DNA of 64,000 nt from Candidatus Zhuqueibacterota bacterium (GCA_049322915.1 JBMOPW010000034.1:648567-712566), one strand, 5' to 3'; shown: positions 19,881 to 55,318, counted from the first letter of the stretch. The notes: generated from the sequence alone by a model not told the origin. Program-made: numbers and translations.

Positions 19881-20013
19881 ATATGAATGACCAGTTGAAA
19901 GCATGTGCAATAAATTCGATACTTTTTGTATTGGTAGTGGACGGTCGCGACCCTCCACTACGCGTATGTCCAATAATTATATAGGCGTCAAAATATATAA
20001 TGGTCATTCATAT
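19881..20013. mobile_element. Small element with 13-bp terminal inverted repeats, inserted into a MITE remnant
   Basis: ATATGAATGACCA ... TGGTCATTCATAT (perfect), flanked by a TGCTA direct repeat. Confidence 0.65.
19934..19961. repeat. GTAG-type REP-like palindrome
   Basis: GTAGTGGACGGTCGCGACCCTCCACTAC. Confidence 0.6.
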
Positions 20014-20199
20014 TGCTAATATTGACCTCACACCAGCACTGTCCTAACAGGCTAATCCTTAGCCATAAGTTGGGGGATATTAACCCTACAACGTCATTTA
20101 GTAAATTTATCACACTATGTTGAGTTTTTCATCTATCAAAAATACAATATACAACGATAATAAATCTATGTGACATAGCAGGGTTAACACATCAAATGG

Positions 20200-20442: not shown

Positions 20443-20604
20443 TCGTGTCTGTCCGGAAATTGACCCTCTCCTAAAAGGAGAGGTAGAATAGACGTTCCCC
20501 TTCTTGCCAGCAGGGTAAGAAGGATTTAGGGGATGAGGTCTGACGTAATGAAGTTTGAAAATTTCAACCCCATAGCTAATTTCAGTATTTTCGGACAGAC
20601 TCTA
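20443..20604. mobile_element. MITE, copy 1 (internally deleted relative to copy 2)
   Basis: Ends TCGTGTCTGTCCG / CGGACAGACTCTA; body closely similar to 44424-44606. Confidence 0.8.
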
Positions 20605-20644
20605 ATTCGTCACACGCACAATAACTTCAAATTCCGGAGCACGA

Positions 20645-37808: not shown

Positions 37809-38891
37809 TTATAAAATTTTCTTTTTTTCACGTCTACGAAAAAGAGCATTTAAATATAATCCAATGCTGATAATGAGGAAAACAATGATCAAGAATGTGA
37901 TCTTTTCATAGCCATACGGATAGATGTAGACGAAAAATGAGAGCGACACGATCATCAATAATAAAAACATGACTCTGTTGATTTTATTCTTAAAATAGTT
38001 CTGAAAGACATTGACATATTTCTCGGTTATCGATCGCCTCCTTAACAGCTTCATTGTTGAGGTTCTTCTGGAAAAAATAATACTCTCATAAAAATTAGCA
38101 AATGGATGACCAACATAATAAACATTGGCGCTGAGAATAACATTGATAAAAATCAAATTGGCCATTAAAAGCAGTTGATGCGATACTGGCAATGTTATGC
38201 TAAAATAGTTAAACATGTTATCCACAATATCAATGGCCAGAAAAAATAATAGAAACGTCACGAGATAATTGATATACCTCGAAATCGGATTTTCTTTATT
38301 GAAACAATGGTACGCGTACAGCAAAATGAAGAATATAATGATCGCATTGAGACCACTGATTCCAGTAAATATCTGTCGATAATTCTCTTTGTTTTCAAAT
38401 AGATATTTTTTATTAAGTATGAATCTGGAAAAATACATGAACCAGATTGGCACTGTTATCAGCAGGACAATCGCATACTTAAAGATGACCTTCAGTTGAT
38501 AATAAACATAATCCACTATAATGTAGAGAATCGTTATGCTTGAGATAAGGCTGATCGCAATTTTGCGATACGTCCACAGATACCATTGCAAGTGATCGCT
38601 GCCAAACGTGTAATTGTTGCCGGAGAAGATGACAGCGAATCCTGAAAAATAGAGAAATGCGAAAATTGCCAAGTTCAGAAAAGTAAATCGATTGAACTCG
38701 CTTCGGAGGAATAATGTCAGAGATAGGAGGAAGAATAGAAAAAATAATTGATAATTAGCAAATGTTAATATGGGTTCTAAAATGTTCCAATGGGGTAATT
38801 GAAGTGCTACTATGGATAGCACTAAGAAGAACATCCATATATTAAAGAGTAATAGGAATCTATTTCCGAATAAACCCAGTTCTTTTCCCAT
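37809..38891 (-). CDS. Hypothetical polytopic membrane protein (~10 TM), possible sensor/receptor
   Basis: 360-aa ORF in an AT-rich segment with about ten hydrophobic stretches and no recognisable catalytic domain. Confidence 0.75.
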   Translation of the reverse strand: MGKELGLFGNRFLLLFNIWMFFLVLSIVALQLPHWNILEPILTFANYQLFFLFFLLSLTLFLRSEFNRFTFLNLAIFAFLYFSGFAVIFSGNNYTFGSDHLQWYLWTYRKIAISLISSITILYIIVDYVYYQLKVIFKYAIVLLITVPIWFMYFSRFILNKKYLFENKENYRQIFTGISGLNAIIIFFILLYAYHCFNKENPISRYINYLVTFLLFFLAIDIVDNMFNYFSITLPVSHQLLLMANLIFINVILSANVYYVGHPFANFYESIIFSRRTSTMKLLRRRSITEKYVNVFQNYFKNKINRVMFLLLMIVSLSFFVYIYPYGYEKITFLIIVFLIISIGLYLNALFRRREKKKIL

Positions 38892-38928
38892 TTACACGAT
38901 ATTCTTAAGCAATTAACCGAACCAAATA

Positions 38929-39168
38929 CTATTTCACAGGCAACTTAGGCGGAAAAGGCGTTGGATCCAATCCTGAATTAAATTGGAAATCCGTAACGCT
39001 TGGCTTTGACAACCTCATGAAGTCTTCATCAAAGTAAAAATTTCGTTTCATCGTATCACTTTTTGGGAACTGTTCAATCGGGGAAAGCCCCCAATAGGAG
39101 AAAAGAATAACACATATTGCATAAAAAATCAATGTGATCAGAAATATTTTCTTCTTTATTCCATACAT
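38929..39168 (-). CDS. Small exported or membrane-anchored protein with Pro-rich C-terminus (putative peptide precursor)
   Basis: MYGIKKK, a hydrophobic helix, then ...FNSGLDPTPFPPKLPVK; co-oriented and 37 nt upstream of the membrane gene. Confidence 0.6.
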   Translation of the reverse strand: MYGIKKKIFLITLIFYAICVILFSYWGLSPIEQFPKSDTMKRNFYFDEDFMRLSKPSVTDFQFNSGLDPTPFPPKLPVK

Positions 39169-39305
39169 TTGCTTCAGTATCTTTTATGCTTACAAGCCAA
39201 TGAGCCAATTATCACTGATTTATATTTTCTCTTCCTCCGTTTCGTTTTAAAAAACTAACTCACGAAACACTAATCTCGTTCTATTTTTTACCTTCTACGG
39301 GAAAT

Positions 39306-39334
39306 AAGATACAAATTTATATTCAAAAAGTCAA
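39306..39334 (-). promoter_or_regulatory. sigma70-like promoter for the small-peptide cassette
   Basis: TTGACT-N17-TATCTT. Confidence 0.5.
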
Positions 39335-39622
39335 CAAGTATTTTTTGTTTTCTGTTAAAGTTCGTCATCTTTTACCGCGAATGCAGGTATATATAAAATT
39401 ACGCATCACGCTACTCCAGCGTCCATGCCAGTGTTTCCTCGAATATTTCAGTCAGGGTTAAAATTTCTATTTCAGATTTGTCATTCTATTTAACACTCGG
39501 ATCTGTTATTTTCTTTCGCAAAATATGCATCGATATTCAAAAGAAAAATTCCGGGGGCATCGGCCGATCTTTTCCTGTTGTCGTTTGGTTGCTAAATGAA
39601 GTAGGTACGGAACGATGAACAT

Positions 39623-41245
39623 TCAGTTTTTCACTGTCTTTCGTTTCTCGCTCAGTTGGCTCCGCACCAGGAGATTTTCCGCCTCAGCAAAATGGGTCAG
39701 GCTATGGTTCAATTGAATATCCTCTTTCAAGTGCACGCGAAACCTTGCCTCTTTGCCCCAACGCATGTAGGCGAATTCTCGCTTGATCAGGAATTTTAAG
39801 GCTTTCTCAAATTCATCAAATGGGAAATAAGAGTAGGAGACATTATCATTCTTGACAAGATTTTGAAATTGTCTGAACATTGCCGGGTTTACAGTAAATT
39901 CATTGACGAACGTATTGACATCATTCATGTTGTCAGGCAGACCCGCCATGAGAGATTGTGCATAGGTCAGCAAATAATTATTTTCATCGTACAGCAAGCG
40001 ACGCAAAGAATCGGGCAGAATCTCGGCGCTGGAAATAGCAATATCCGGAGTGATGCCTCCACCACCCAGGACAGTTCTTCCTGCGGCAGTTCGGAAGCCG
40101 GGCTGCGTGCTGAGCTGCATCTCTATGTTGCTGGCAGAAACAGTGTACGCATTGGTAAAATAATCCTCCTTGCTAAAATCTTTATAACTGCGTTGAATCG
40201 ACCGCCCGCATGGCGTAAAATATCTGGCCGTCGTAATGAGCAATGCCGAACCATCCCGTAGAGCAAACTGGCTTTGAACAAGTCCCTTGCCGAACGTTGT
40301 CTCTCCAACAATCAATGCGCGATCCCAGTCCTGCAATGCTCCGGCGACAATTTCCGAAGAGGACGCGGTGCCATGATCCACCAGCACGATCATGGGGATA
40401 TTCAGATATTTCTTGACAGGCGTCGTGCAGTATTCCTGATAGGACGATTCTTCCCGTCCCTGTGTGGTGACAATGATTTTTCCAACTGCCAAAAATTTGT
40501 CAGCAACAGAGATTGCCGAGCTGAAATAACCACCGCCATTGCCGCGTAAATCCAGCACCAATTTACTCATACCATGGAGGCACAGAGAATCGAGTGCTGC
40601 CTGCAATTCGTGATCGGTTGACTGGGAAAACAGATTGATCTTGATGTAGGCAACTCCGGGGTGAATCAGCACCGCATACGGAATGCTTTTCATGCTGATT
40701 TTTTGCCGATCCAATTCCTTGTGCACAATTTCTGAACTGCAATTCTGTTTCAAGTCCAGACTGATTTTCAGCCCGGTAGCATCAGCGATTAATTGGGACA
40801 CCTGGGAATAGTTGAGCCCAATGGCGGATCTGCCGTTGATTGTGATCATTTTATCTCCGCTGTTCATGCCGCTCTCCCACGCGGGACTCTCATCCATCAC
40901 CGATGTGACCAGAATTGTATCCTGGACAATGGCGTATCGAACGCCAATTCCGGAAAATCCATCTATTTCTGCCTCCCACTTTGTATAGTCTTCCCGCGCC
41001 AAAAATGCAGAATGGGGATCGAGATTTTCCAATATCCCATTCACAGCGTCCTGAAAAATTTCCTCGACATCGACCTCATCGATGTAGGACTGTTGGATGA
41101 TATTGATGATGGAATACAATTTTTTCACACTTTCGGAAGTGAGATTGGACGAGGCGACGGCAACTTCGGTCTGGTACTTCTTCGTGACGCTCATCAGCAA
41201 CAAACCGATGAAACAACATGCTGCCACAATTTTGATTTTTTTCAT
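39623..41245 (-). CDS. S41 C-terminal processing peptidase (CtpA-like) with PDZ domain
   Basis: LDPHS, GIG, SPA, LDLRGNGGG, TASSSEIVAGALQD, TFGKGLVQ, TTARYFTP.GR.IQ, GGGITPD. Confidence 0.93.
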   Translation of the reverse strand: MKKIKIVAACCFIGLLLMSVTKKYQTEVAVASSNLTSESVKKLYSIINIIQQSYIDEVDVEEIFQDAVNGILENLDPHSAFLAREDYTKWEAEIDGFSGIGVRYAIVQDTILVTSVMDESPAWESGMNSGDKMITINGRSAIGLNYSQVSQLIADATGLKISLDLKQNCSSEIVHKELDRQKISMKSIPYAVLIHPGVAYIKINLFSQSTDHELQAALDSLCLHGMSKLVLDLRGNGGGYFSSAISVADKFLAVGKIIVTTQGREESSYQEYCTTPVKKYLNIPMIVLVDHGTASSSEIVAGALQDWDRALIVGETTFGKGLVQSQFALRDGSALLITTARYFTPCGRSIQRSYKDFSKEDYFTNAYTVSASNIEMQLSTQPGFRTAAGRTVLGGGGITPDIAISSAEILPDSLRRLLYDENNYLLTYAQSLMAGLPDNMNDVNTFVNEFTVNPAMFRQFQNLVKNDNVSYSYFPFDEFEKALKFLIKREFAYMRWGKEARFRVHLKEDIQLNHSLTHFAEAENLLVRSQLSEKRKTVKN

Positions 41246-42227: not shown

Positions 42228-42773
42228 TCAAATGAACAATTGAATGTTGCTATGCTGCGCTTCGGCCAGATAAGTCGTTACCCCGCAGAACTTCATGAGT
42301 GGATATGCCATCATTTCATCGCGCTGCAATCCCATGAGCCGCATTGACATTTCGCAGATGTAAATTTGAATGCCGAGGTTGCCGGCCATTTGAAGCATCT
42401 CTTCAATGGAGGCAACCTTCTTTTTTCTCATGAGATGCTTCATCATGCTCGTCCCCAGACCAGCCATGTTGAGCCGCGATAATTTCAGTCTGCTGGTTCC
42501 CTTCGGAAGCAATGCGCCAAAAATTCTGGAGAAGAAATCCTTCCGGCCCGGTTTTTTATCCCTGTCGCGCAGCGCCGATGTGGCCCAAAATGTAAAAAAC
42601 ATGGTGACCTTCATCCCGCTGGCCGCTGCGCCAGTGGCAATGACAAACGCTGCCAGCAGCTTATCCAGTTCCCCGGAAAAGACGATGAGCGACAGTTTAT
42701 TCTCGCGGCCGGCCTCCAGCTTCCCCACCCGTTCCGTTAATAGTTCAAGGCTTTTGTTCCAATCGGTGTCCAT
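42228..42773 (-). CDS. DsrE/DsrF/DrsH-like (DrsE_2) sulfur-relay protein
   Basis: IVFSGELDK..AAFVIATGAAA.G..VTMFFTFW, LSRLNMAGLG, ICEMSM.LMG, ends LFI; start ATG 42773. Confidence 0.88.
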   Translation of the reverse strand: MDTDWNKSLELLTERVGKLEAGRENKLSLIVFSGELDKLLAAFVIATGAAASGMKVTMFFTFWATSALRDRDKKPGRKDFFSRIFGALLPKGTSRLKLSRLNMAGLGTSMMKHLMRKKKVASIEEMLQMAGNLGIQIYICEMSMRLMGLQRDEMMAYPLMKFCGVTTYLAEAQHSNIQLFI

Positions 42774-42851
42774 ATTTTTGCAATGTCCTTTTTTAGTGCG
42801 TTGAATCAACGCCACCCTGCTGTGTTGTGGGCGTTGGTGTCGCTGCAATGA

Positions 42852-42886
42852 GAAAACCCGGAATCAGGGCTCAATTCCGGGTTTTC
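42852..42886. terminator. Hairpin/terminator between the FadL-like and dsrE genes
   Basis: GAAAACCCGGAAT-N9-ATTCCGGGTTTTC. Confidence 0.65.
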
Positions 42887-42932
42887 ATTTTTCTAACAAT
42901 GGAAGCACAATGATTTTGATTTTATCACGTGA

Positions 42933-44240
42933 TTAAAAATTGTATGTCATCCCAAAACTTGCAGCGATGATATTCATGCCATGGGTTCCTGGCATTTCAT
43001 ACGCGCTCTCAAATGGGATTTCTCTGTCTTCGCCCATGAGGTACTCAAAACCCAGATCCAGGCTGATTTTGCCGAGGCAATAGCTTCCGCCGGCCGTGAT
43101 GGCATTGTAGCTGACACTCGGGAAAATGATGTTCAGCGTTTCATCCGGGGCGGGCGCCGGATCATTGTAATACCCGGCTCGAACTGCCAAAACATCCGTC
43201 ACCTTGTATTGAGCGCCAAAGCGAATCTGTGTGGCGTCTTCCCAATTCAGATGCATTTCATTCTGACCGGTCTGGTTGACCTGCGCATCCCACACCGCGT
43301 CTTTGTACGTTGTCACAATCGTCTCTTCGGTTTCAGACCATTTGCTGTACTGGACGTCGGCAGTGAGGGTCAGTTTTTCAGTCGCGCAGAAAGCGATTCC
43401 GCCGCCAATCCACATGGGCCAGGCCAGATCGCGCTCATAATCCGTTTCCTCTGCATTGTACGCTTTGAACGCTGAATTGCTGGCAGTCCCTTCAAACGTC
43501 ACGGTGGTCTTCGTTTTGAAAGACAGGCCGACACTCAGTTTTTCAATCGGTTTCACCAATAAACCCAGGGAGAGACCATACCCCAGGCCGGTGCCGGATT
43601 CTTCGTACTGGGCATCCATCATGCCATCTTCGCCCGGCTGCTGCGTCATCATGTTGTAGGTGTCCATCGGCTGTTTCATATCCATCTGGCCGTAAAACAG
43701 ATTCAGCGCAGCGCCCACAGAAATTTTATCATTGACGAGATAGGCAATTCCTGGTGAGAAATTGAATACACCAATCATGCTCATCCATTCGAATGCCGTG
43801 CCCGATGGTCCGCTGAAAGCCGCAAGGTCTGCGCCATCCCATTCAGCGCCGAGTCCTGCCGGGACGAACGCGCCGATTCCGGCAAATAGCTTTTTACCGC
43901 AGAATAATGGCAGATACCCCATGGCGTTGAGGCTGATGTAATGATTCATCCGGGTCTCGGCATCCACTGAAGCGCCACCCAGGGCTGCCGGGAATGTCAC
44001 CTGATAGGTGCCCTGAGGAATAATATCGGTCGCGAAAATGGAAAATTGCGGGCCTTTGACTCGAGCCAGTCCTGCCGGATTCCAGTAAATTGCGCTGTAA
44101 TCATTTGCGAGACCGATGAACGCGCCGCCCATTCCGAGCGACCGGGTCCCGATGCTGTTCAAACTCAAACCATTTGCAAACACAGAAGTAAACGAGAAGC
44201 AAAGAAGAACTATCATGACTAACGACAAACTTTTTTTCAT
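42933..44240 (-). CDS. FadL/OmpP1/TodX-family outer membrane transport protein
   Basis: Signal peptide; GMGGA...D.SAIYWNPAGL (hatch NPA motif); W.D...RFG.QY, RAGY..D..P.P; C-terminal YNF. Confidence 0.9.
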   Translation of the reverse strand: MKKSLSLVMIVLLCFSFTSVFANGLSLNSIGTRSLGMGGAFIGLANDYSAIYWNPAGLARVKGPQFSIFATDIIPQGTYQVTFPAALGGASVDAETRMNHYISLNAMGYLPLFCGKKLFAGIGAFVPAGLGAEWDGADLAAFSGPSGTAFEWMSMIGVFNFSPGIAYLVNDKISVGAALNLFYGQMDMKQPMDTYNMMTQQPGEDGMMDAQYEESGTGLGYGLSLGLLVKPIEKLSVGLSFKTKTTVTFEGTASNSAFKAYNAEETDYERDLAWPMWIGGGIAFCATEKLTLTADVQYSKWSETEETIVTTYKDAVWDAQVNQTGQNEMHLNWEDATQIRFGAQYKVTDVLAVRAGYYNDPAPAPDETLNIIFPSVSYNAITAGGSYCLGKISLDLGFEYLMGEDREIPFESAYEMPGTHGMNIIAASFGMTYNF

Positions 44241-44423
44241 TCAATCCTCCTGAAGTTAATGGACCTGATTAATAAATTTCAACAAAGCCAAACTGCGAAC
44301 CGCTCACCTCCTTTCGGAATGTGCACTTCGTATTCTGTTGTGATTACCGTAGGCAGGTCTGGTACTCATCCCGATTGGGACAAGCATGACTCCCCCTTCC
44401 ATTTCTTTGAAACTGAATTTGAA

Positions 44424-44606
44424 TAGTGTTTGTCCTAAAATTGCAAATATTGACCTCACCCCAGCCCTCTCCTAAAAGGAAAGGGAGAACAGATGTTCCC
44501 CTTCTTGCCCGTAGGGTAAGAAGGGGTTCAGGGGATGAGGTCTGACGGAATGAAGTTTGAAAATATCAACCCCATAGCTAATTCAGGTGTTTTCGGGCAG
44601 ACACTA
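44424..44606. mobile_element. MITE, copy 2 (about 183 bp)
   Basis: Terminal inverted repeats TAGTGTTTGTCC / GGGCAGACACTA; internal CCTCACCCC...CCCTCTCC...GGGGATGAGG palindromic core; matches 20443-20604. Confidence 0.8.
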
Positions 44607-44717
44607 AATAGACCTCTGATCAGGAATTGCCACGTACTGGCTGCCCACGAACTCCCGATTTTAGTCGGGGCGAAAACAGACTCCATGCCTGGCGATTTGT
44701 CACCACGACCATTTCGG

Positions 44718-45341
44718 CTAACAACCTCCGCCGGTCTTTTTCTTTTTGGTCTTCATCGTCGTAATTGCTTTGGGTTTTGCGCTCGACGCAGCATCGGACT
44801 GAACCTCCAATTGGCCACCGCCCAAATCCGAAGCAATGGCCGCTTTGGTTTGATAGAGCAATATTTCATCATTGGATGCCAGCGCGCCGGGTTTTTCCGG
44901 GTTCAAAATTTCTTTGTTCCAATAATTCAAACCGCCTTCAAGCACAACCACGTCCCTGATTCCGGCGGCATGCAGCACAACCCACGCCTGAGATGCATTG
45001 GAGATGCCGTTGGAATACAAAATGATCAACTTGTTCGGGGAAAGATTTTCGATCGATTCCGGCGTCAGCAATTCCGGCAGCGGCATATTGATGGCCGATT
45101 TGATGTGTCCCTGCTGAAACGCTTCGGAAGAACGCACATCAATCAGAACGAAATCCGTATTGCCTTCCACAATCATTTGGGACACAGCTTCCGGACTGAT
45201 GCGGTCTTCACTGCTCGCGATGGTTTTGGCCAGTTCCTGCGCATTGAGTTTGATCTGTCGATTTTGTACCGGCAAAAAGGCCAGGATGAGTCCCAGCACC
45301 AGAGCGATTAAAATGCCGATTTGTTTGCCTTTCAATGTCAT
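44718..45341 (-). CDS. Membrane-anchored rhodanese-like protein with C-terminal GGGC
   Basis: N-terminal TM helix; LIDVRS..F..GHI.SAINMP, ILYSNG, LEGGLNYW; ends KKKKTGGGC; GAGGTGA RBS. Confidence 0.85.
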   Translation of the reverse strand: MTLKGKQIGILIALVLGLILAFLPVQNRQIKLNAQELAKTIASSEDRISPEAVSQMIVEGNTDFVLIDVRSSEAFQQGHIKSAINMPLPELLTPESIENLSPNKLIILYSNGISNASQAWVVLHAAGIRDVVVLEGGLNYWNKEILNPEKPGALASNDEILLYQTKAAIASDLGGGQLEVQSDAASSAKPKAITTMKTKKKKTGGGC

Positions 45342-45345
45342 AGAA

Positions 45346-45939
45346 TCACCTCGATTTATTAAATTTACCTTCCAGTTTTTCAGCGCCATAAAATCCGGCG
45401 AGCGCCATGAGCACGATGCCAAAGGCGATTATTCCGGGCCGAATGCCCAGCAATTTATCCAGTGTGAACGTATCGCCCAAAAATCCTGCGATGAAGAGCG
45501 GTTCCAGCAGAAAGAACAGTTCGGAGAATGCGAATATCCCGGCGAACACGCCGAGCAAAAACATGATGCCATCGATTTTCATCGTGGCGCAGGCGACCAA
45601 TCCGGTGCCGGGGCAATAACCGCCGATGATGAATCCAAATCCCAGAATCAACCCGCCGATGATTTGCGGCCAGAGATAGGTTGGATTGATGAAGATGAGT
45701 TTCAAGTCCAGCCAGCCAAATGCATTGAAATAGTAAATGCCGATCATGGCGACTACGATCGCGGTGAACATGACTTTGAACACGGTCATGTCGGTGAAAT
45801 AAAATTGCGCCGCCAGTTTGCGCGCGTTTCCAAAGCCGGCCCGTTCCAGTATAAATCCGAAGCCGATGCCAATGAGAAATGCCAGCACAAAGCCGGTCAT
45901 TTCGCTGAAGAAATCCATCTGTGATAATGGTGCAAACAT
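45346..45939 (-). CDS. YeeE/YedE sulfur-compound transporter, subunit 2
   Basis: GFGFILERAG, KVMFTAI, GGLILGFGFIIGGYCPGT. Confidence 0.88.
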   Translation of the reverse strand: MFAPLSQMDFFSEMTGFVLAFLIGIGFGFILERAGFGNARKLAAQFYFTDMTVFKVMFTAIVVAMIGIYYFNAFGWLDLKLIFINPTYLWPQIIGGLILGFGFIIGGYCPGTGLVACATMKIDGIMFLLGVFAGIFAFSELFFLLEPLFIAGFLGDTFTLDKLLGIRPGIIAFGIVLMALAGFYGAEKLEGKFNKSR

Positions 45940-45984
45940 AGGTTCCTCGTTAATTTATATTTGAGTGCTTCAAATTCTGGTGAG

Positions 45985-46497
45985 TTAGATCCATTGTTTT
46001 CTCAAAAAATAAGCCAGCATGTACGCGCCGACGAACACCATCATCATAAACGCCCAGCTACCAACAGCGAGCGTTGCGCCGCCGCTCAGCGCCTGTCCGC
46101 TGGTGCAGCCTCGCGCCAGCGACGCGCCAAACCCCATCAATCCCCCTCCGACAAACGCCAGGGCCAATCGAGTTTTATCGGTGACGTGTGGGCCGCGTTC
46201 GATTTTCCATTTCAAACGTCCGGCCAACGCGCCGGAGATGAGTCCTCCCACCAGCACGCCGAGCACCTCGTACACGAGCCAATCTTTCATGGGGCCGCCG
46301 CTCTCCGAGAAATAAGATCCCATGAAATGATTCTTTTCAGTATGGGCCGGAGCCACCTGATGTTCCACAGCAGCGACCGCGCGTTTGAATGCGCCGGATG
46401 CGCCCAGTCCGCGCCCGGCTATGACATAGGCAGCTAACAGCACCAGTCCCAGCAGAACGCCGGCAATGTAAGGCGACCAATATTTTTGTTGTTCCAT
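45985..46497 (-). CDS. YeeE/YedE sulfur-compound transporter, subunit 1
   Basis: WSPYIAGVLLG, LGASG, GFGASLARGCTSGQALSG. Confidence 0.88.
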   Translation of the reverse strand: MEQQKYWSPYIAGVLLGLVLLAAYVIAGRGLGASGAFKRAVAAVEHQVAPAHTEKNHFMGSYFSESGGPMKDWLVYEVLGVLVGGLISGALAGRLKWKIERGPHVTDKTRLALAFVGGGLMGFGASLARGCTSGQALSGGATLAVGSWAFMMMVFVGAYMLAYFLRKQWI

Positions 46498-46546
46498 TTC
46501 ATTTCCCTCAGTATCAATTTTCTGTCATTCGATTTCTATCAATGAA

Positions 46547-47512
46547 TTAATAAGGAATCCAGGTGGACATCTGTCCGGCCTGGACCATCAAAAATCGCAG
46601 GAGGATTCCACCCAACAGCACGAAGACCGGCGAGAGAAAGCCCGGCATGTGTTTTCCCCTGATCTCGTGCAATTCCAGAAATGCAGGGAGAACCAATCCC
46701 AGCATGACGATGAAAATCCAGAAGAAAGCAGTGAGTGGACCGCCCAGAATAAGTTTGGCCGCTTCCTGCGTAATGGCCGGTCCGGTGACCTGCTCGATGA
46801 TGAGCAGGAGAAGGAACAGCATTTCCGTGAGAATCAAACCCAAATCAATTTTCTGGAATAGCGCTATCTCCTTTTTCTCCCGAGAAAGCAGAATAACCAA
46901 TGCCGCAGCCGTGGATAAACCGGAGACTAAAAACAGGGGGCCCAGTATAGCAGAATTCCAGAACGGCCTCGCGGCGAACGCTCCCAGCAAAATGCCGGTG
47001 TAAACACCCACGAACAGACCAACGAACAGATTGATCCAGGCAATAGGGCGAGTGAATTTGGACAGCCAGTTCAGGATGCTATCTGCGCGGGGAATTCTGG
47101 TCACTATCTGATTGCTGTAAAATTCAGGGAAGCCCTGTCGCAGTTGGGTTAAAATGAACAATAAATTGAACGGATAGAATACGATCAGAATCCAGGCGCC
47201 CCAGGACATGGGCGCGGACGGCCGAAACGTCAGGTACATCTGGTAGACGCGAATTTTATTTTCCAGATCGAGCAGCAGCGCCAACATTCCCGCACTGAGC
47301 AGGATCGGCGCCAACAGTGGCATCCGCGAGGCGGCCAGCGGCATCTCTTTTGATTTATTCAAAAGGACAAGCAGCGCCGAAAGCGCCACAATGCCGGCCA
47401 CCAGTCCTCCTAAAAACAAATACACAGGAATTTCCCAGCCCCAGATATGCAGCGATGGATCAATGAGATGGTTCAATTTTCCACTTGTAATTTCTATTTC
47501 TTCCATTGGCAT
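46547..47512 (-). CDS. psrC: Polysulfide reductase membrane anchor (NrfD/PsrC family)
   Basis: WGWEIPVYLFLGGL, LDL, SAPMSWGAWIL, YTGILL, RPFWNS, FLVSGLSTA, GGILLRF. Confidence 0.88.
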   Translation of the reverse strand: MPMEEIEITSGKLNHLIDPSLHIWGWEIPVYLFLGGLVAGIVALSALLVLLNKSKEMPLAASRMPLLAPILLSAGMLALLLDLENKIRVYQMYLTFRPSAPMSWGAWILIVFYPFNLLFILTQLRQGFPEFYSNQIVTRIPRADSILNWLSKFTRPIAWINLFVGLFVGVYTGILLGAFAARPFWNSAILGPLFLVSGLSTAAALVILLSREKKEIALFQKIDLGLILTEMLFLLLLIIEQVTGPAITQEAAKLILGGPLTAFFWIFIVMLGLVLPAFLELHEIRGKHMPGFLSPVFVLLGGILLRFLMVQAGQMSTWIPY

Positions 47513-47699
47513 TCCTTACAATAATATTGAATTGTGTATTTGATACGATTTAATGCTGTTGAAAAAGTCACTGCGGACGAACCCGGCAGCACTCCGAGAG
47601 AATCTTCGGACTCCCCCATCTGTCTGTTATAACGTAACCTGATAATGCCAGTTAACTCTCAGTTCGACCCGGTGACAATTTTAAAAACAAGTAACCGGA

Positions 47700-48239
47700 T
47701 CAGATCAAATAATAAACCTGGGGACCCGTGCCGGTGGAGGGCTGAATGACTTTCCATTTTCTGGAATTCAGCAGACGACTCACTTCGCTGTTGGGTTGGT
47801 TCAGGTCGCCGAAATACAAACAACGGGTCGGACAGACCGAGACGCACGCAGGCAGCTTGCCTTCTTTCAAGCGATGCTCGCAGAACGTGCATTTATCCAC
47901 CCAGCCTTCCGGATGGACGTAACGCGCATCGTAGGGACAGGCGGCGATGCATGCTTTGCAGCCAATGCATTTGCTGTGTTCCACCAGCGTGATGTTGGAA
48001 TCAGATTCGATGTAACTGGCCCCGGTCGGACAGGCATGCACGCACGGAGGATGCTCGCAGTGATTGCATCGTTCCGAACGTATCTCCAGGCTCAGTTCGG
48101 GAAACTTGCCGTGAGTCTCCTCGACAATCCAATCGCGATGAAATCCATCAGGGGTTTGATTTTCTGTCTTGCAGGCCACAATGCAATCCGTACATCCCAC
48201 GCATTTTTTGGTATCGATCACCATCGCATAACGCGCCAT
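47700..48239 (-). CDS. psrB: 4x[4Fe-4S] electron-transfer subunit (PsrB/NrfC)
   Basis: CVGCTDCIVAC, CNHCEHPPCVHACP, CIGCKACIAACP, KCTFC...PACVSVCP. Confidence 0.92.
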   Translation of the reverse strand: MARYAMVIDTKKCVGCTDCIVACKTENQTPDGFHRDWIVEETHGKFPELSLEIRSERCNHCEHPPCVHACPTGASYIESDSNITLVEHSKCIGCKACIAACPYDARYVHPEGWVDKCTFCEHRLKEGKLPACVSVCPTRCLYFGDLNQPNSEVSRLLNSRKWKVIQPSTGTGPQVYYLI

Positions 48240-50452
48240 TATACTCCCTCCATCTTAAACGTCACAAAATTTCCCCGCATGCCGGTCCCGCCCATGATTG
48301 GATCCATCAATACTTTTGTAATCAGCATATTGTCATCTGCGCCTTTCAGGTAGGATCGCGCCATCTGTTTTTGCGTATGGCCAAATCCATGCACCATGTA
48401 GACGCAGTCATTCCTGATGCGTTGAGTGACTTTCGCCTTGATGCGATTGCTCACCACACCGTCCTGGTTCTCCAGCCGGACATAGGCGCCGGGTTTGATT
48501 CCCCACTCTTTAGCCACCGATTCGCTGATCCACACTTCATTCTCATTTTTCACCTGGGTGAGAATGGGATTGTTGGTGGTTCGGCTGAACGTATGCATGG
48601 GCGCGCGGCCGTAAATCAACCGATAATACCCTTCCGGCGGTTCTTCGTGTTTGGTGTATTTCGGGATGGGATCGAACCCGTATTGTTCGAGTTGAGTTGA
48701 GTATAATTCGATTTTGCCGGATGGCGTGTAAAATTCGTAATCTTCACCATCCAGGCCGTACAGCGGCGAATCCCAGTCAAATCGCTTGAGGCCGATTTTT
48801 TTCATTTCCTCCAACGAAGTCCCCATCTGCTTCAGGCGATAATCGAGGAATTCTTCAATATCCTGCCACGGAAAATATTCGCTGAGATTGAGCTTGTCTG
48901 CCAATTGCTTCACCATCCACCAGGCCGGCCTGGAATCCCAACGCGGCTGGAATACGGGCGCCCTCAGTGCGACTGTGGGAAACCGTTCCTGCAGAATGCG
49001 CAGATCATCGTACCGTTCGAGGTACGTGCATTCCGGAAGCACGACGTCGGCCCAGCCGGTGATCTCCGTCGGCATCACGTCAATGGCCACCAGCAAGTCC
49101 AGCGCCTGAATTGCCTGCATCGTCTTGTTCACGTCCGGGATGGTCAGCGGAATGTTCACGCCGTACACAAACCAGCCCTTGATATTGCACTCGTTCTCCA
49201 CCGAGGGCACTGTGGCGTCGCACAACCCGGATGACAGCACCAGCGACGCCAACGGGTATTTATCCGGATAAACGCTGCGCCAATCGCGCTTGGGCGCCGG
49301 CGGCTTGGGCGCCGGATAATCAACTTCATCCAATTTTGCCGGGAAATAGAATCCGCCTTTTCGGCCCCAGCTTCCCAGCAGCGCATTGATGATAGCACTG
49401 GCGCGCACCCGCTGCGTATCATCGCCGTACCAGGTGACATGCCGTCCCGGATGCACAATGACGCGTGGGGCAGCATGGCCCATTTCCCGCGCCGTCTTGC
49501 GAATGACGTCGGGCCGAATGGTTGTAATCGGGTAGGCCCATTCCGGCGTGTAGGTTTTAACCGTCGCTTTCAACACATCAAAACCATAGGTATATTTTTC
49601 AACATAGGCTTTATCGTATAATTCCTCTTCGATGATCACATTTATCCAGGCCAGCAACAATGCCATGTCCGTCGCCGGCTTGATCGGCAACCAGTATTTG
49701 GATTTGCTGGCCGCGACAGAAAAACGGGGATCCACGGTGATGATGGTTGCGCCGCGTTCGATAGCTTCAGCAAATTCCTGCACCTGACTATTGTGCATAT
49801 TCTCGCCGAGGTGGGAACCGATCAAGACGAGACAATCGGTATTTTTGATGTCGGTATTGGGCGGCGAACCAACCTGTTCGCCAAAGGTCAGCATATAGGC
49901 ATCCTCGCGGGGACCGCGGCATTGGGCATAAGAAGGCGCCGCTACGTTGGTGGAGCCCCAGGCATTGATCAGCTTTTTGAAAAACGTACCGCCCGCTCCG
50001 TGAGTGAACAGCGCCACGCATTCCCGGCCGTGTTCCTTTTCAATCTTGTACAACTTCTCGGCAATATAATCGAACGCCTCGTCCCAGGTCGCTTCCCGGA
50101 ATGTCTGCTTCCCGCGCGCCTCGGTTCGAATCAGGGGCACTTTCAATCGGTCATCATCCATGTACGCGCCCATGCCGCCGCTTCCCCGAGGACAAAGCCG
50201 GCCGCGACACATGGGATCGTCCTCGTGGCCTTCGATCTTCCACGGCTGGTTATCTTTCTTCACAGCCCAGGCAGCACATTTCCAGAAACAAATCTCGCAA
50301 TAGGTTGGGACACGTTCAATGATAGGTCCATTTTGCGAACCAGCGCTGCCGAAAAGGTTGAACGGCTCAAACAGCCGCGCCCCGAACGCTGCTCCGCTTA
50401 ATCCAAGCGAGGAGATTTTAATGAAATCACGTCGATTCACTTTTTTGGGCAT
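48239..50452 (-). CDS. psrA: Mo/W-bis-PGD polysulfide/thiosulfate reductase catalytic subunit (PsrA/PhsA)
   Basis: Tat signal NRRDFIK; FS0 motif CEICFWKC...LCPRG; putative Mo ligand in SYAQCRGPRE; ADVVLPECTYLER; start ATG 50452. Confidence 0.9.
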   Translation of the reverse strand: MPKKVNRRDFIKISSLGLSGAAFGARLFEPFNLFGSAGSQNGPIIERVPTYCEICFWKCAAWAVKKDNQPWKIEGHEDDPMCRGRLCPRGSGGMGAYMDDDRLKVPLIRTEARGKQTFREATWDEAFDYIAEKLYKIEKEHGRECVALFTHGAGGTFFKKLINAWGSTNVAAPSYAQCRGPREDAYMLTFGEQVGSPPNTDIKNTDCLVLIGSHLGENMHNSQVQEFAEAIERGATIITVDPRFSVAASKSKYWLPIKPATDMALLLAWINVIIEEELYDKAYVEKYTYGFDVLKATVKTYTPEWAYPITTIRPDVIRKTAREMGHAAPRVIVHPGRHVTWYGDDTQRVRASAIINALLGSWGRKGGFYFPAKLDEVDYPAPKPPAPKRDWRSVYPDKYPLASLVLSSGLCDATVPSVENECNIKGWFVYGVNIPLTIPDVNKTMQAIQALDLLVAIDVMPTEITGWADVVLPECTYLERYDDLRILQERFPTVALRAPVFQPRWDSRPAWWMVKQLADKLNLSEYFPWQDIEEFLDYRLKQMGTSLEEMKKIGLKRFDWDSPLYGLDGEDYEFYTPSGKIELYSTQLEQYGFDPIPKYTKHEEPPEGYYRLIYGRAPMHTFSRTTNNPILTQVKNENEVWISESVAKEWGIKPGAYVRLENQDGVVSNRIKAKVTQRIRNDCVYMVHGFGHTQKQMARSYLKGADDNMLITKVLMDPIMGGTGMRGNFVTFKMEGV

Positions 50453-50841
50453 GATGTTTCCTATTCGCTTTTTTTGTTCACACCGATCTATGAATTTTTG
50501 CAACGCTTCTGCATCAACGCCTCAATGGCATTAAGAAGAAGAAATATCCGAAATAATCGATTCTGACAACTGAATTTGATTTTATAAATTCGAATATCAC
50601 ATGGTAAGAATGAGTCTACGCTAAAAAGGGGTTAAAGCCCAAAAATCAAAGGTAACTTTCTGTTCCCGACTTAAAAGTCGCGGCTATTCAAAGTATATAA
50701 GTTTACAAATGCTCTCTTCGACTCTCAACATTGCAGCCCGTGAAACGGGTTGCGATCAGACCTCCGGCTATCGGCTACATCCTTATCAGACTTAATAGTT
50801 ATTCGAGGCATTAATTTATTATGCCATTTTTTAATATACTT

Positions 50842-50860
50842 AATAGTTGACATTATCAAC
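50842..50860. promoter_or_regulatory. Putative MarR operator upstream of the psr operon
   Basis: AATAGTTGACATTATCAAC, a near-palindrome; 16/18 identical to 51480-51497. Confidence 0.6.
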
Positions 50861-50876
50861 AATTTATCAAAAAAAA

Positions 50877-51332
50877 TTATTCCAGGGACAACCAATTTTG
50901 CACAGCGTGGTTGAGCTGCTCCAGCACCTGTATCATCGATTTTTGATACTCGGCCGGGATATTCTGCATAATTTGTTCGTGAATTTTTTGATAATCCCTG
51001 ATGAGCTTTTTGGACAGATCCATTCCGGCGCCTGTGAGGGACAGGTTGTACACGCGGCGATCCGTCTCTCCAATATCACGGTTTACCAGCTTCTTACGAA
51101 CCAGGCCATCGACGATGCGGGTCACCCGGCTGCTGGTCAGCGACATTTTCTGGGCTAAGTGATTCACTGTCAGACTTTCATGCTCGTACAGCGTGCGCAA
51201 ACAGCGGAACTCCACAATGGAGACGCCGTACTTGGCCACATGCCGATTTTCTTTCTCATTGCAGTTTACAAATAACCGCGAGATGACTTCGGCGAGCTTG
51301 ACTGAATCCGGTTGGGAGAACGATTCGGACAT
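50877..51332 (-). CDS. MarR-family transcriptional regulator
   Basis: LA.KMSLTSSRVTRIVDGL..K.LV.R....DRRV..LSLT..G winged-helix pattern. Confidence 0.92.
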   Translation of the reverse strand: MSESFSQPDSVKLAEVISRLFVNCNEKENRHVAKYGVSIVEFRCLRTLYEHESLTVNHLAQKMSLTSSRVTRIVDGLVRKKLVNRDIGETDRRVYNLSLTGAGMDLSKKLIRDYQKIHEQIMQNIPAEYQKSMIQVLEQLNHAVQNWLSLE

Positions 51333-52588: not shown

Positions 52589-55318
52589 GTGAAAATTAAA
52601 GCCGCGACAGTTTGGTTTCATCTGTTCTTACTCATCATCGTTCTTAACGCTTCCGCCCGCGATAAAAAGCTGATTCAGGTCGATCTCGCCGGAAAATCTC
52701 ATGACGAGATCCACCGGCTTCTGGCATTGAACCTGGACGTGGTATCGCTGAACAGGGGAAATAACACCGTTGACTTCATCGTTCACGATGACAATTTAGC
52801 GCTCATTCAATCCATGAATTTCCCCACTGTCACCAAAATTCCGAATCTATCCAATTATGAAACCGAGTTGCGGGACACCGGTTATCTGGACGATTTTCAT
52901 ACCTACGAGCAGACGCTCGAGGCCATGCAGACCGTGGCGGACAATTACCCGGACATCGCCCAATTGAACAACATTGGCAGCAGTTGGGAAACGGAACAGG
53001 GCATTGCTGAGCGGTATATCTGGGCGCTCAAAATATCGGACTCTGTGGCGACCGAAGAAGCTGAGCCTGAAGTATTGATTGTGGGTTGCCACCATGCCCG
53101 GGAAATCATCACCCCGGAGATTGTGCTTGCGCTGATGAATGTGCTGGTTGAAAATTACGGCAGCGATCCGTTCATCACCCATCTGATCGATCATCGCCAG
53201 ATCTGGCTGGTGCCCATTGTCAACCCGGATGGCTACACCTATGTTCTGACAGAGGATTTATGGTGGCGGAAAAACCGGCGTAACAACGGCGACGGCAGCT
53301 ATGGCGTGGATCTGAATCGCAACTACAGCTATCAATGGGGTTTGTTCGATAATTGGTACGTCAGTTCCAATACCAGCGATGATGTCTATCGTGGGCCGGC
53401 CCCGTTTTCCGAACCGGAACTGCTGGCTATCAAACAACTGATGGAATCCCATCATTTCCTGGTTGCGCTTTCATTTCATAGCTATGCCCAGGAAGTGCTG
53501 TATCCGTGGGGCTACCAGACAAGTTATACGCCGGATCATTCTGTTTTCTCGGCGCTGGCGGACTCCATAGCTCATTACAACGGCTACGGCAAAGGCACTT
53601 CATGGGAGGCGCTGGGCTCGTCCTATCTGACCAATGGAAGCTCTGAGGACTGGTTCTACGGCGATACCTCATCCAAAAATAAATGCTTTCAATTGACGCT
53701 CGAAGTTGGCACGTCTTTTCACCCGACGCCGGAGGAGGTGCCGGGACAGATCTCCGAAAATATCGGCCCATGTTTGTACGCAGCGTACGCAGTTGGCGAG
53801 GAGCCGCTCATTTACCACTCTCCCCTGCCGGATTGCGAGCACGACGGCCCCTACTCCGTCGTCGCCCGAATTACGCCGCCGGTCATTCTGACCAGTCCGG
53901 TTGATCTGGATGAAACGGAGTTCACGGTGTACTTCAACGGCACAGGGCAGGCGCCATTCGATTCCGTTCACATGACCGCGACCGGAAATCCGGATGAGTA
54001 CAGCGCTGAAATTCCTGGTATCCCCACTTCGGATATCATTTACTACTTCATCAGCGCGTCCGACGAATTGCACCGGACAGGCGCGGCGCCGCGCGGCGCT
54101 CCCATGGCATGCTATTCGTTCAACACAGGGCTGGACACTCAGGCGCCGGTGATTACCCATACGCCGCTCCATCATTTCTCCGTTTACACCGAAGAGTTTG
54201 CTGTGAATGCGCAGGCGGATGACAATATCGGCATTGCCAGCGTCTGGCTTGTTTACAGGAAGAATGACGACGCGCCTGATAGCCTCGCCATGAACCCCAC
54301 CGGTCTTGCGAACGAATACCAGGCCCGGATTAAAAATGACAATCCCCTGGTTGGCGATTACTACGATTACCGGATTATCGCAACTGACATTTCTGCGAAT
54401 CGGAACCAGACCTATCTGCCAGCAGTCGGCTACCATCGATTTTACCTGTTGAACAGCCTTCAGTACGATTTTGAACTGGAAGCATCATTCACAATGAACT
54501 CCGGCGACTGGCAATGGGGCATTCCCACATCCGGCCCGAATCAGGCCCATTCCGGCTCGAACGTATGGGCGACTAATTTGTCCGGGAATTATAACGACGC
54601 GACAGAATCCATTCTCGATACGCCGGAATTCGACCTGACCGGCCTGGACTCCACGCGCATCACCTTCTGGCACTGGTACGAGAACGAATACAGCAGCAAG
54701 GTGTACTGGGATGGTGGGAATATCAAAATCTCCGTGAATGGCAGTGGTTTTCAGATCATCGAGCCGGAAGACGGCTACGACGGGATTGTGGACACGTACA
54801 ACACAATAATAGGTGGTGAACCCTGTTTCGGCGGCCCGGTGACAACCGGTAATTTCTGGCATCAGGAGACCATTGATCTCTCGCTGTACAAAGATCAACG
54901 CGTCAAACTCCGCTTCCATTTTGGGTCCGATCAGTACACAACAACCAACGGCTGGTACATTGACGATGTGGAAATTCTGTTCAAGTCTTCCACTGGTATT
55001 GAACAGGGACGGCCGAATACCGTGCAGTACGCCTTTGAGTTGGCTCAGAACTATCCCAACCCCTTCAATCCGGCTACGGAAATCAATTACAGCCTGGACC
55101 AACCGGGATTCGTTCGCCTGCGGATTTACAACGTTCTGGGACAGCATGTAGCAACCCTCGTCAGCGAGCCCAAAGCGACGGGGCGCCACCGCATTTTGTG
55201 GCATGGAACCGATGATAACAACGCCATCGTTTCCAGCGGAATTTACTTCTGCGAGTTACGAATTGAAGATAGGAGCGGTGACAGGGTTGCCATTAAAAAA
55301 ATAGTAAAAATGGAATGA
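52589..55318 (+). CDS. M14 zinc carboxypeptidase (carboxypeptidase T-like) with Ig-like and immune-inhibitor-A-like domains and a C-terminal sorting domain
   Basis: HHARE, NPDG, WRKNR, GVDLNRNY, FSEPE, SFHSY, LEVG; GWYIDDV; LAQNYPNPFNP; GAGGAG RBS. Confidence 0.92.
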   Translation: MKIKAATVWFHLFLLIIVLNASARDKKLIQVDLAGKSHDEIHRLLALNLDVVSLNRGNNTVDFIVHDDNLALIQSMNFPTVTKIPNLSNYETELRDTGYLDDFHTYEQTLEAMQTVADNYPDIAQLNNIGSSWETEQGIAERYIWALKISDSVATEEAEPEVLIVGCHHAREIITPEIVLALMNVLVENYGSDPFITHLIDHRQIWLVPIVNPDGYTYVLTEDLWWRKNRRNNGDGSYGVDLNRNYSYQWGLFDNWYVSSNTSDDVYRGPAPFSEPELLAIKQLMESHHFLVALSFHSYAQEVLYPWGYQTSYTPDHSVFSALADSIAHYNGYGKGTSWEALGSSYLTNGSSEDWFYGDTSSKNKCFQLTLEVGTSFHPTPEEVPGQISENIGPCLYAAYAVGEEPLIYHSPLPDCEHDGPYSVVARITPPVILTSPVDLDETEFTVYFNGTGQAPFDSVHMTATGNPDEYSAEIPGIPTSDIIYYFISASDELHRTGAAPRGAPMACYSFNTGLDTQAPVITHTPLHHFSVYTEEFAVNAQADDNIGIASVWLVYRKNDDAPDSLAMNPTGLANEYQARIKNDNPLVGDYYDYRIIATDISANRNQTYLPAVGYHRFYLLNSLQYDFELEASFTMNSGDWQWGIPTSGPNQAHSGSNVWATNLSGNYNDATESILDTPEFDLTGLDSTRITFWHWYENEYSSKVYWDGGNIKISVNGSGFQIIEPEDGYDGIVDTYNTIIGGEPCFGGPVTTGNFWHQETIDLSLYKDQRVKLRFHFGSDQYTTTNGWYIDDVEILFKSSTGIEQGRPNTVQYAFELAQNYPNPFNPATEINYSLDQPGFVRLRIYNVLGQHVATLVSEPKATGRHRILWHGTDDNNAIVSSGIYFCELRIEDRSGDRVAIKKIVKME

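Follow-up and report, generated by a model that had tools for sequence, protein, structure and literature searches.

The window analysed here is a 64,000-nucleotide stretch of DNA from Candidatus Zhuqueibacterota bacterium (GCA_049322915.1, JBMOPW010000034.1:648567-712566). Between positions 42,228 and 51,332 it carries a sulfur-respiration cluster of nine genes, all on the minus strand, which includes a gene for a FadL-type outer-membrane channel (Table 1). Gene families were called by scanning the open reading frames (ORFs) of the window with Pfam and NCBIfam. The ORFs and both family scans bear out all nine genes, with the strand and positions that an earlier, preliminary description of the sequence had given for them. 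The assembly has a size of 6.25 Mb and is 96% complete, and the closest database proteins are named KSB1 or Calditrichota.

Table 1. Genes and other features of the sulfur-respiration cluster, in the order in which the genes would be read on the minus strand.
Feature	Position	Strand	Evidence
marR: MarR-family regulator	50877-51332	-	PF01047, 53.4 bits (cut-off 24.6)
psrA: molybdopterin catalytic subunit, polysulfide/thiosulfate reductase type	48239-50452	-	three molybdopterin domains
psrB: four-cluster ferredoxin subunit, 4Fe-4S dicluster domains	47700-48239	-	PF13247, 83.6 bits
psrC: NrfD-type quinol-oxidising membrane anchor	46547-47512	-	PF03916, 150.7 bits
yeeE: half-size YeeE/YedE, C-terminal half, GCTSG motif	45985-46497	-	PF04143, 88.5 bits, profile positions 174-309
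yeeE: half-size YeeE/YedE, N-terminal half, GYCPGTG motif	45346-45939	-	PF04143, 48.9 bits, profile positions 2-149
rhodanese-like protein, membrane-anchored	44718-45341	-	PF00581, 73 bits
spacer in place of X (477 nt)	44241-44717		alignment with G124
dispersed repeat copy (~190 nt)	44416-44611		blastn against the genome
fadL: FadL/TodX-family outer-membrane channel	42933-44240	-	PF03349, 154.6 bits (cut-off 29.7), residues 18-412
dsrE: DsrE2-type sulfur carrier	42228-42773	-	PF13686, 158.4 bits

Three of the open frames are longer than the genes as listed. The psrA frame reaches 50503 from a TTG, with the likely ATG start at 50452, the frame of the rhodanese-like protein extends to 45422 from a TTG, with an ATG at 45341 that is preceded by GGTGA, and the dsrE frame extends to 42848 from a TTG. 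The start of psrB overlaps the stop of psrA by one base.

The psr genes have all the features of the PsrABC class, namely a catalytic subunit carrying molybdenum bis(pyranopterin guanine dinucleotide) and exported by the twin-arginine translocation (Tat) pathway, a four-cluster iron-sulfur (FeS) subunit and an NrfD anchor, encoded in one operon. Tat export of PsrA, which the preliminary description had assigned, is confirmed by the N-terminus read from the ATG at 50452, MPKKVNRRDFIKI, which is a twin-arginine motif (RRDFIK). PsrA matches Thermus thermophilus PsrA (2VPW) over its full length (phmmer, E = 1.7e-209, 700.9 bits), and the FeS and NrfD subunits are likewise common to the window cluster and to Thermus PsrABC (2VPW-2VPZ). 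The score of PsrA against the PhsA equivalog model, 472.6 bits, is below the cut-off of 694, so that the substrate of the Psr enzyme may be polysulfide, thiosulfate or another compound. There is no second psr/yeeE/dsrE2 cluster in the genome and no homologue of type III sulfide:quinone oxidoreductase (SQR) anywhere in it. A DsrC-like gene adjoins a DsrK-like gene on contig C2.

The YeeE/YedE (TsuA) protein is split over two genes and has both the PF04143 match and the Cys-containing loops of its class. It scores 52.7 bits against the TsuA equivalog, which has a cut-off of 400, and its halves also match the YedE selenium models of NCBIfam. The protein at the end of the cluster is indeed a DsrE protein, as first described, of the DsrE2 (PF13686) type. 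All 10 aligned sequences keep the Cys of the IYICE motif, and its score with the equivalog NF047629 (60 bits) lies below the cut-off of 210. It has no signal peptide and is thus presumably cytoplasmic. The MarR regulator has two Cys residues (..NC.. and ..FRC..) that are conserved in an alignment of 12 relatives. A comparison of the marR-psrA spacer with the regions upstream of fadL or its usual neighbour in three genomes showed as possible common operator motifs only scattered 14-mers carrying one or two mismatches, one of them inside the dispersed repeat and none of them convincing.

The rhodanese-like protein starts with lysines and an N-terminal hydrophobic helix, which are followed by the rhodanese domain, a low-complexity linker, a lysine-rich tail and a Gly-Gly-Cys end. 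It had been described as a rhodanese, a kind of protein that carries sulfane sulfur, but its catalytic Cys is replaced by Ser, which sets it outside the catalytic rhodaneses. Ser stands at this position in the window protein and in 9 of 9 syntenic orthologues, all nine of which share the design. In 120 database homologues the Ser is present throughout (120/120), the C-terminal Gly-Cys in 117 and no other Cys in 115. On these sequence features the protein belongs to a distinct subfamily, in which the sole thiol is carried on a flexible C-terminal arm; the sources label this subfamily only "rhodanese-like". The positive-inside rule, taken by itself, would place the domain in the periplasm. The arrangement resembles that in Wolinella succinogenes, where the rhodanese-type protein Sud lies beside the Psr reductase. 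The window differs from Psr/Sud in that its rhodanese lacks the active-site Cys, is membrane-anchored and has its only Cys at the C-terminus, and in the addition of the split YeeE, FadL and DsrE2. Sud and SoxY are sulfane-sulfur carriers, and by likeness to them the window protein may be read as another such carrier.

The FadL protein is full-length and keeps every invariant position of the family alignment, and its gene is preceded by an AGGAGG ribosome-binding site that is conserved with a relative of the same genus (G124). The AlphaFold2 model, which has a predicted local distance difference test score (pLDDT) of 82.3, superimposes in Foldseek on E. coli FadL (1T16) with E = 1.3e-26 and template-modelling (TM) scores of 0.79/0.81, and on TodX and TbuX with TM scores of 0.70-0.79. 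It fits BamG (TM about 0.6) and PorV (TM 0.43) clearly less well. Conserved features are its signal peptide, an N-terminal hatch (NGLSLNSIG...) and, in the hatch, the NPA motif known from FadL proteins; W53-N54-P55-A56-G57 is invariant in alignments of 19 and of 20 FadL sequences.

The channel thus shares fold, signal peptide, hatch and NPA motif with E. coli FadL, Pseudomonas putida TodX and Ralstonia pickettii TbuX (1T16, 3BS0, 3BRY), although the identity with these proteins is only 16-20%. It stands apart from the fatty-acid transporter, as had been anticipated. In a tree of 89 FadL-family proteins (a quick IQ-TREE run, LG+G4, with support from the Shimodaira-Hasegawa-like approximate likelihood-ratio test, SH-aLRT, only) E. 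coli FadL forms a long, remote branch, and the window protein scores 52.2 bits with the FadL equivalog NF007988, far below the cut-off of 585. In E. coli FadL the carboxylate is held by two basic residues (R157 and K317, numbered for the mature protein), in place of which the window protein has Gln and Met, according to a low-identity alignment that is indicative only. The neighbourhood, too, is different, with no genes of fatty-acid or aromatic catabolism but genes of sulfur respiration and sulfur carriers. The absence of fatty-acid genes, on which the preliminary description had relied, extends in the family scans to the whole window. The relatives of the window FadL differ from FadL and TodX also in having a dedicated secreted partner, called X here; we know of no such partner of FadL or TodX.

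X is a secreted protein of about 362 residues with a signal peptide, encoded directly upstream of the FadL orthologue in G124, in G121 and G132 of the same family, and in five loci of Melioribacteraceae, which belong to another phylum. The model of X (pLDDT 91.8) has two domains, which match the DUF302 structures 1J3M and 1Q9U with target-normalised TM scores of 0.77 and 0.74, and the protein-atlas neighbours of X are DUF302 clusters. Pfam gave no match to X at E = 1e-3 for the Melioribacteraceae copies or at 1e-5 for the KSB1 copies. The invariant positions include Met-rich motifs, and 89 relatives were found among 5.8 billion proteins. Each half of X therefore has the fold of the DUF302/TT1751-like family (PF03625; 1J3M, 1Q9U), from which X differs as a secreted tandem of two domains, and X is absent from the window. 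DUF302 genes also occur in soxXYZA-DUF302-B clusters without soxCD, according to the available part of one report (PMC5037610).

The linkage of FadL to sulfur genes recurs beyond this genome, in G124, G132, Melioribacteraceae and many metagenome contigs. In G124 the order is marR-psrABC-yeeE-yeeE-rhd-X-fadL-dsrE2, with protein identities of 71-89%, and the two genomes of the genus agree in having dsrE2 next after fadL. In G132, from a second genus of the family, the unit is marR-dsrE2-dsrM-like-dsrK-like-X-fadL, and two GcvH/LbpA-like genes lie 3-5 kb upstream of it. The Melioribacteraceae loci encode MerR, type III SQR (NF049943, 677 bits with a cut-off of 525), DUF1641, DsrC/TusE (TIGR03342), DsrE2, X and FadL. 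In one of them, L017, psrABC-yeeE-yeeE-rhodanese lies just upstream of the SQR-type X-FadL set. Paralogues of MarR flank the X-FadL units in locus L114, in G132 and in Melioribacteraceae. Among 80 genome loci gathered with a FadL profile, relatives of psr, yeeE, rhodanese or dsrE were found only at L016 and L017 of Melioribacteraceae (2/80), and one further locus had a weak molybdoenzyme match. With queries from that lineage, SQR, DUF1641, DsrC and DsrE2 were seen at a third Melioribacteraceae locus (L032) as well.

An alignment of X was used to gather 80 metagenome loci, of which 60 were closer and 28 of these had at least 600 nt on both sides. A FadL gene adjoins X in 19 of the 28 by tblastn, and in 23 when four divergent PF03349 neighbours recognised by Pfam are added; the other five (L126, L128, L160, L164, L165) have different neighbours. 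Of the closer-X loci, 21 extend for at least 2.5 kb upstream, and in 14 of these the upstream part contains sulfur genes, either as an SQR-DUF1641-DsrC-DsrE2 set or as a Psr, YeeE and rhodanese set. The larger part of these (11/14) has MerR, type III SQR, DUF1641, DsrC and DsrE2 without YeeE. When full-length FadL genes are compared, sulfur-gene matches fall within 10 kb in 19 of 37 loci with an adjacent X and in 0 of 50 without; the 50 include G129 and G120, which were later found to have traces of X. Nine more distant X-like genes, from nine other genomes within the phylum of the window, are 23-32% identical to the X queries (tblastn), and these have a FadL neighbour in five cases and a YeeE-rhodanese neighbour in two. 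The linkage also extends across phyla, and to subfamilies of X that share no more than 25-29% identity with the query.

Two other neighbours of X were seen in these lineages. Eight or nine Cys are conserved in the C-terminal domain of the MerR protein beside X (L017:5513-5989 and homologues), whose gene always heads SQR-DUF1641-DsrC-DsrE2-X-FadL or X-FadL units. In some Melioribacteraceae-type loci (L017:11492-12884, L016 and L146) FadL has directly downstream of it an ArsS-type radical S-adenosylmethionine (SAM) protein (TIGR04167) with an AhpD-like partner (TIGR04169), and then a marR gene.

The gap between the rhodanese gene and fadL (44241-44717) had been treated as plain intergenic DNA. 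It occupies the place of X and holds a dispersed repeat. Neither in the gap nor in the 96%-complete assembly was X found by tblastn or by a six-frame profile search, the best profile match in the genome having E = 0.02, and a separate genome search for X was negative as well; no remnant of X was detected in the gap by profile or by DNA alignment with G124. The gap resembles G124 only at the bases after the rhodanese stop and over about 25 nt before fadL, including AGGAGG. The repeat contains a GC-rich hairpin followed by a T-rich run, and has 45 further blastn matches, 75-90% identical, on at least 15 contigs. Rfam gave no match to the gap or the repeat. Other copies in the window lie at about 20464-20605 and 20012-20051, and a number of copies consist of two arms that are separated by 300-600 nt. 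A terminator-like site is found at 44501-44484, inside the repeat; such sites occurred in the scan at chance level (12 found, 11.7 expected). Sites resembling sigma-70 promoters numbered 18 against an expected 10.4±3.2, for a consensus that may not apply to this phylum.

Read depth in the probable source run climbs at the repeat from about 60 to about 1800, and the Logan contigs of that run break inside it, where one contig reaches as far as 44568 and its successor begins at 44554. Contigs built from short k-mers are expected to break at a repeat of such copy number. A second sample contains small pieces of both flanks of the gap, none of them bridging. The join across the repeat, and hence the loss of X, is plausible, although it is not independently bridged. 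In the same family G120 has the 3' end of X at a contig edge, and in G129 (L108:1-290) a contig starts with a long, perfect hairpin repeat, behind which only ~25 codons from the end of X are left; X in G129 was either truncated by an inserted element or cut short by an assembly artefact. From the presence of X in G124, G121 and G132, together with the 3' traces in G120 and G129, it follows that X upstream of fadL is the ancestral state in the family. The genome studied here alone in the family shows no trace of it.

The repeated embedding of X-FadL in clusters for zero-valent sulfur suggests that FadL most likely passes S8 or long polysulfanes. Zero-valent sulfur, formed by SQR and consumed by Psr, is common to the two main contexts of the pair. 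As S8 or long polysulfanes it is hydrophobic, and FadL-type channels bypass the barrier of the lipopolysaccharide leaflet. The cluster is therefore tentatively regarded as a periplasm-facing unit for polysulfide or S0 respiration, in which FadL would pass hydrophobic zero-valent sulfur through the lipopolysaccharide barrier. This is the explanation favoured here, with a likelihood that falls a little short of even. The preliminary description had proposed that the channel imports S8 or organic polysulfanes at the head of a chain reaching the cytoplasm. Its argument is upheld as to the linkage, which is conserved and recurrent, and as to the separateness of this FadL from the fatty-acid transporter; it had overlooked X, the content of the spacer and the relatives without X that lie among housekeeping genes.

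The mechanism would run as follows. S8 or long polysulfanes would enter through FadL, the direction in this organism being inwards, towards Psr. Conversion of the entering sulfur to polysulfide would fall to the rhodanese-like protein, by means of its C-terminal thiol, or to free sulfide, and the Tat-exported PsrA would reduce this polysulfide with quinol electrons received via PsrC and PsrB. The split YeeE pair and the cytoplasmic DsrE2 could take a sulfur species further inwards, and MarR, with its two conserved Cys, could regulate the cluster. In the relatives X would ferry sulfur across the aqueous periplasm. In this genome, with X apparently lost and a repeat-bearing spacer in its place, FadL might act alone or with the rhodanese-like carrier. 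A wider proposal, possible but on the whole doubtful, is that FadL and the double-DUF302 X form a dedicated S8/polysulfane route through the outer membrane and periplasm of Gram-negative bacteria that serves in either direction, in sulfur reducers and in SQR-containing oxidisers, and that the Gly-Cys rhodanese is a swinging-arm carrier to PsrA. Such a carrier could explain how the genome manages without X.

A precedent is found in a bacterium of the Fibrobacteres-Chlorobi-Bacteroidetes (FCB) group. In Chlorobaculum tepidum the FadL-family protein CT2230 belongs to a sulfide-repressed regulon and is co-transcribed with an upstream hypothetical gene, CT2231, and the authors of the 2017 preprint suggested that it moves hydrophobic sulfur chains (bioRxiv 10.1101/172254). 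CT2230 resembles the window FadL as a FadL-family outer-membrane protein tied to S0 metabolism. The tie rests on regulation rather than gene neighbourhood, and the available part of the preprint reports no Psr, YeeE or DsrE2 context. The YTD cluster (yedE-tusA-dsrE-chp2-chp1), a marker of zero-valent sulfur metabolism, has a YedE/YeeE protein and a DsrE-type carrier in common with the window (PMC9751629). The window differs in having no TusA recognised among its scanned ORFs, in its split YeeE, and in the added Psr, FadL and Cys-less rhodanese. The accessible part of the YTD paper names no outer-membrane component, FadL or DUF302, and gives no indication that Chp1 and Chp2 are equivalents of X and FadL, a correspondence that was considered and set aside. 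A literature search, with subscription journals outside its coverage, yielded no description of the X-FadL pair or of a rhodanese of this Cys-less kind, and a link of FadL to sulfur proposed only in the Chlorobaculum preprint.

Several observations weigh against a sulfur-conducting role of the channel. The X-linked FadLs do not form one clade in the tree but at least three: the clade of the window FadL, which has six members and 98% SH-aLRT support, a second of 19-20 members nested among FadLs without X, and a distant third of 16 members, all X-linked. The hatch is nearly identical in the window FadL and in X-less relatives that lie among housekeeping genes, and the nearest X-less FadLs adjoin genes for biotin carboxylase, acyl-CoA synthetase, ClpB, MutS or a C25 peptidase. 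As far as can be judged from its sequence, no feature of FadL points to sulfur. No Cys is conserved across the aligned X-linked FadLs, Cys388 being conserved only within the six-member, KSB1-like clade.

The gene neighbourhoods add further reservations. No double-DUF302 gene stands beside fadL in the window. The pair fadL-dsrE2 is separated from psr-yeeE-rhodanese by the 477-nt repeat-bearing spacer, whose terminator-like hairpin makes co-transcription of the two parts doubtful, so that the channel may have a transcript of its own, separate from psr. Some X-FadL pairs have no sulfur genes around them, as in G121, where the neighbours are genes for GH130, isoprenylcysteine carboxyl methyltransferase (ICMT) and an IS200-like element, and at L019 and L023. 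Of the seven remaining loci among the 21 described above, four have MerR only, one FadL only and two nothing recognisable. Moreover, the sulfur queries were drawn from the same clusters, related contigs are not independent of one another, and short contigs hide context.

Of the alternatives, the one that survives best, and is still unlikely, is that FadL, with X in the relatives, takes up a hydrophobic organic compound such as a fatty acid, octanoate or lipoate, a quinone-like lipid or an organosulfur compound, which is either needed by the sulfur enzymes or linked to them by co-inheritance. The known substrates of the family are fatty acids and aromatics, the invariant Met-rich motifs of X would suit any greasy ligand, and the GcvH/LbpA-like genes upstream of the unit in G132 could hint at lipoate. 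However, GcvH-like queries matched none of the 80 X-anchored metagenome loci (0/80), and no acyl-CoA, beta-oxidation or lipoate-ligase gene was found in the window or in the annotated X loci. The Gln and Met at the carboxylate-binding positions point the same way, as weak evidence, given the low identity of the alignment.

Next in probability, and also unlikely, is that X and FadL form an exit for zero-valent sulfur. Such sulfur would arise at the inner membrane, in most relatives through SQR, and would be released from the cell as S8, and Psr clusters would carry the pair along for the same pool of sulfur. SQR produces S0, and the commonest X-FadL context is the type III SQR set without the YeeE importer, in 11 of the 14 loci. 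The Chlorobaculum gene fits here too, as a FadL-family member of a sulfide-repressed regulon in a host that both makes and consumes extracellular S0, according to the available part of the preprint (10.1101/172254). The window, on the other hand, holds the polysulfide consumer Psr in a genome that lacks a type III SQR homologue. Export is also at odds with the characterised FadL channels, which are uptake channels with an extracellular binding site.

It is improbable, in turn, that FadL is a general channel without any tie to sulfur, co-inherited with the island, and that the fadL-dsrE2 end is a decaying remnant. Such a channel would be in keeping with the frequency of FadL homologues at 40-54% identity among housekeeping genes in FCB bacteria, with the presence of a FadL orthologue in only 5 of the 13 other genomes of the family, and with the state of X, which is absent here and reduced in G129 to its last codons beside a hairpin repeat. 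Against this, the linkage recurs across phyla and across the divergent X subfamilies, the FadL gene is full-length with its invariant positions and ribosome-binding site kept, and dsrE2 follows it in both genomes of the genus. A very improbable alternative is that the chalcogen is selenium (or tellurium), in which case the Psr-like enzyme would reduce selenite as SrrABC does and the envelope module would handle insoluble Se0. In favour of this, only one operon for respiratory selenite reduction is known, which is Psr-like and encodes proteins with rhodanese domains, as far as the accessible part of its description goes (PMC12481199), the YeeE halves match the YedE selenium models, the model matched by the SQR of the relatives takes its name from a selenoprotein subtype, and some loci have ArsS-type radical SAM genes next to them. 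Against it, PsrA matches Thermus PsrA over its full length with 700.9 bits, the DsrC, DsrE2, DsrMK-like and SQR partners are sulfur proteins, and no selenium-utilisation family was seen among the scanned ORFs of the window, in scans that did not search specifically for selD and selA.

The passage of S0 through the outer membrane is a question common to sulfur reducers, oxidisers and disproportionators, and according to the accessible part of a 2023 paper no membrane protein for S0 transport has been experimentally confirmed (PMC10045233). X and FadL, as a conserved, small and separable module beside well-understood sulfur enzymes, would be concrete candidates. The window offers a natural variant, in which the channel lacks its usual periplasmic partner and a rhodanese subfamily is present as a possible periplasmic carrier. 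Even if the link to sulfur were false, the cluster warns against annotating such genes as long-chain fatty acid transporters.

Besides the window FadL, two paralogues that score above the PF03349 cut-off are encoded in the genome. One, on contig C7, adjoins a gene for a TonB-dependent receptor, and a YsiA/FadR-like TetR gene lies about 3.6 kb away, which counts in favour of the sulfur reading of the window FadL. The other, on contig C20 (C20:243578-245976, L208:4079-6477), is preceded in a cluster rich in tetratricopeptide repeats by a gene for a 362-residue protein that belongs to no Pfam family; this protein has the size of X and no detectable homology to it.

Elsewhere in the window, positions 38001-40000 have a G+C content of 0.36, against about 0.50 in the remainder. 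This dip sits between the gene for a 360-residue membrane protein and that for an S41 peptidase, and the syntenic place in G129 is without the S41, LiaF-like and dsrE2 genes. On the other side of the cluster, at 52589-55318, lies a gene for a 909-residue M14 carboxypeptidase. This protein combines a MAM-like domain with a sorting tail for type IX secretion, which shows that the organism has a type IX secretion system.

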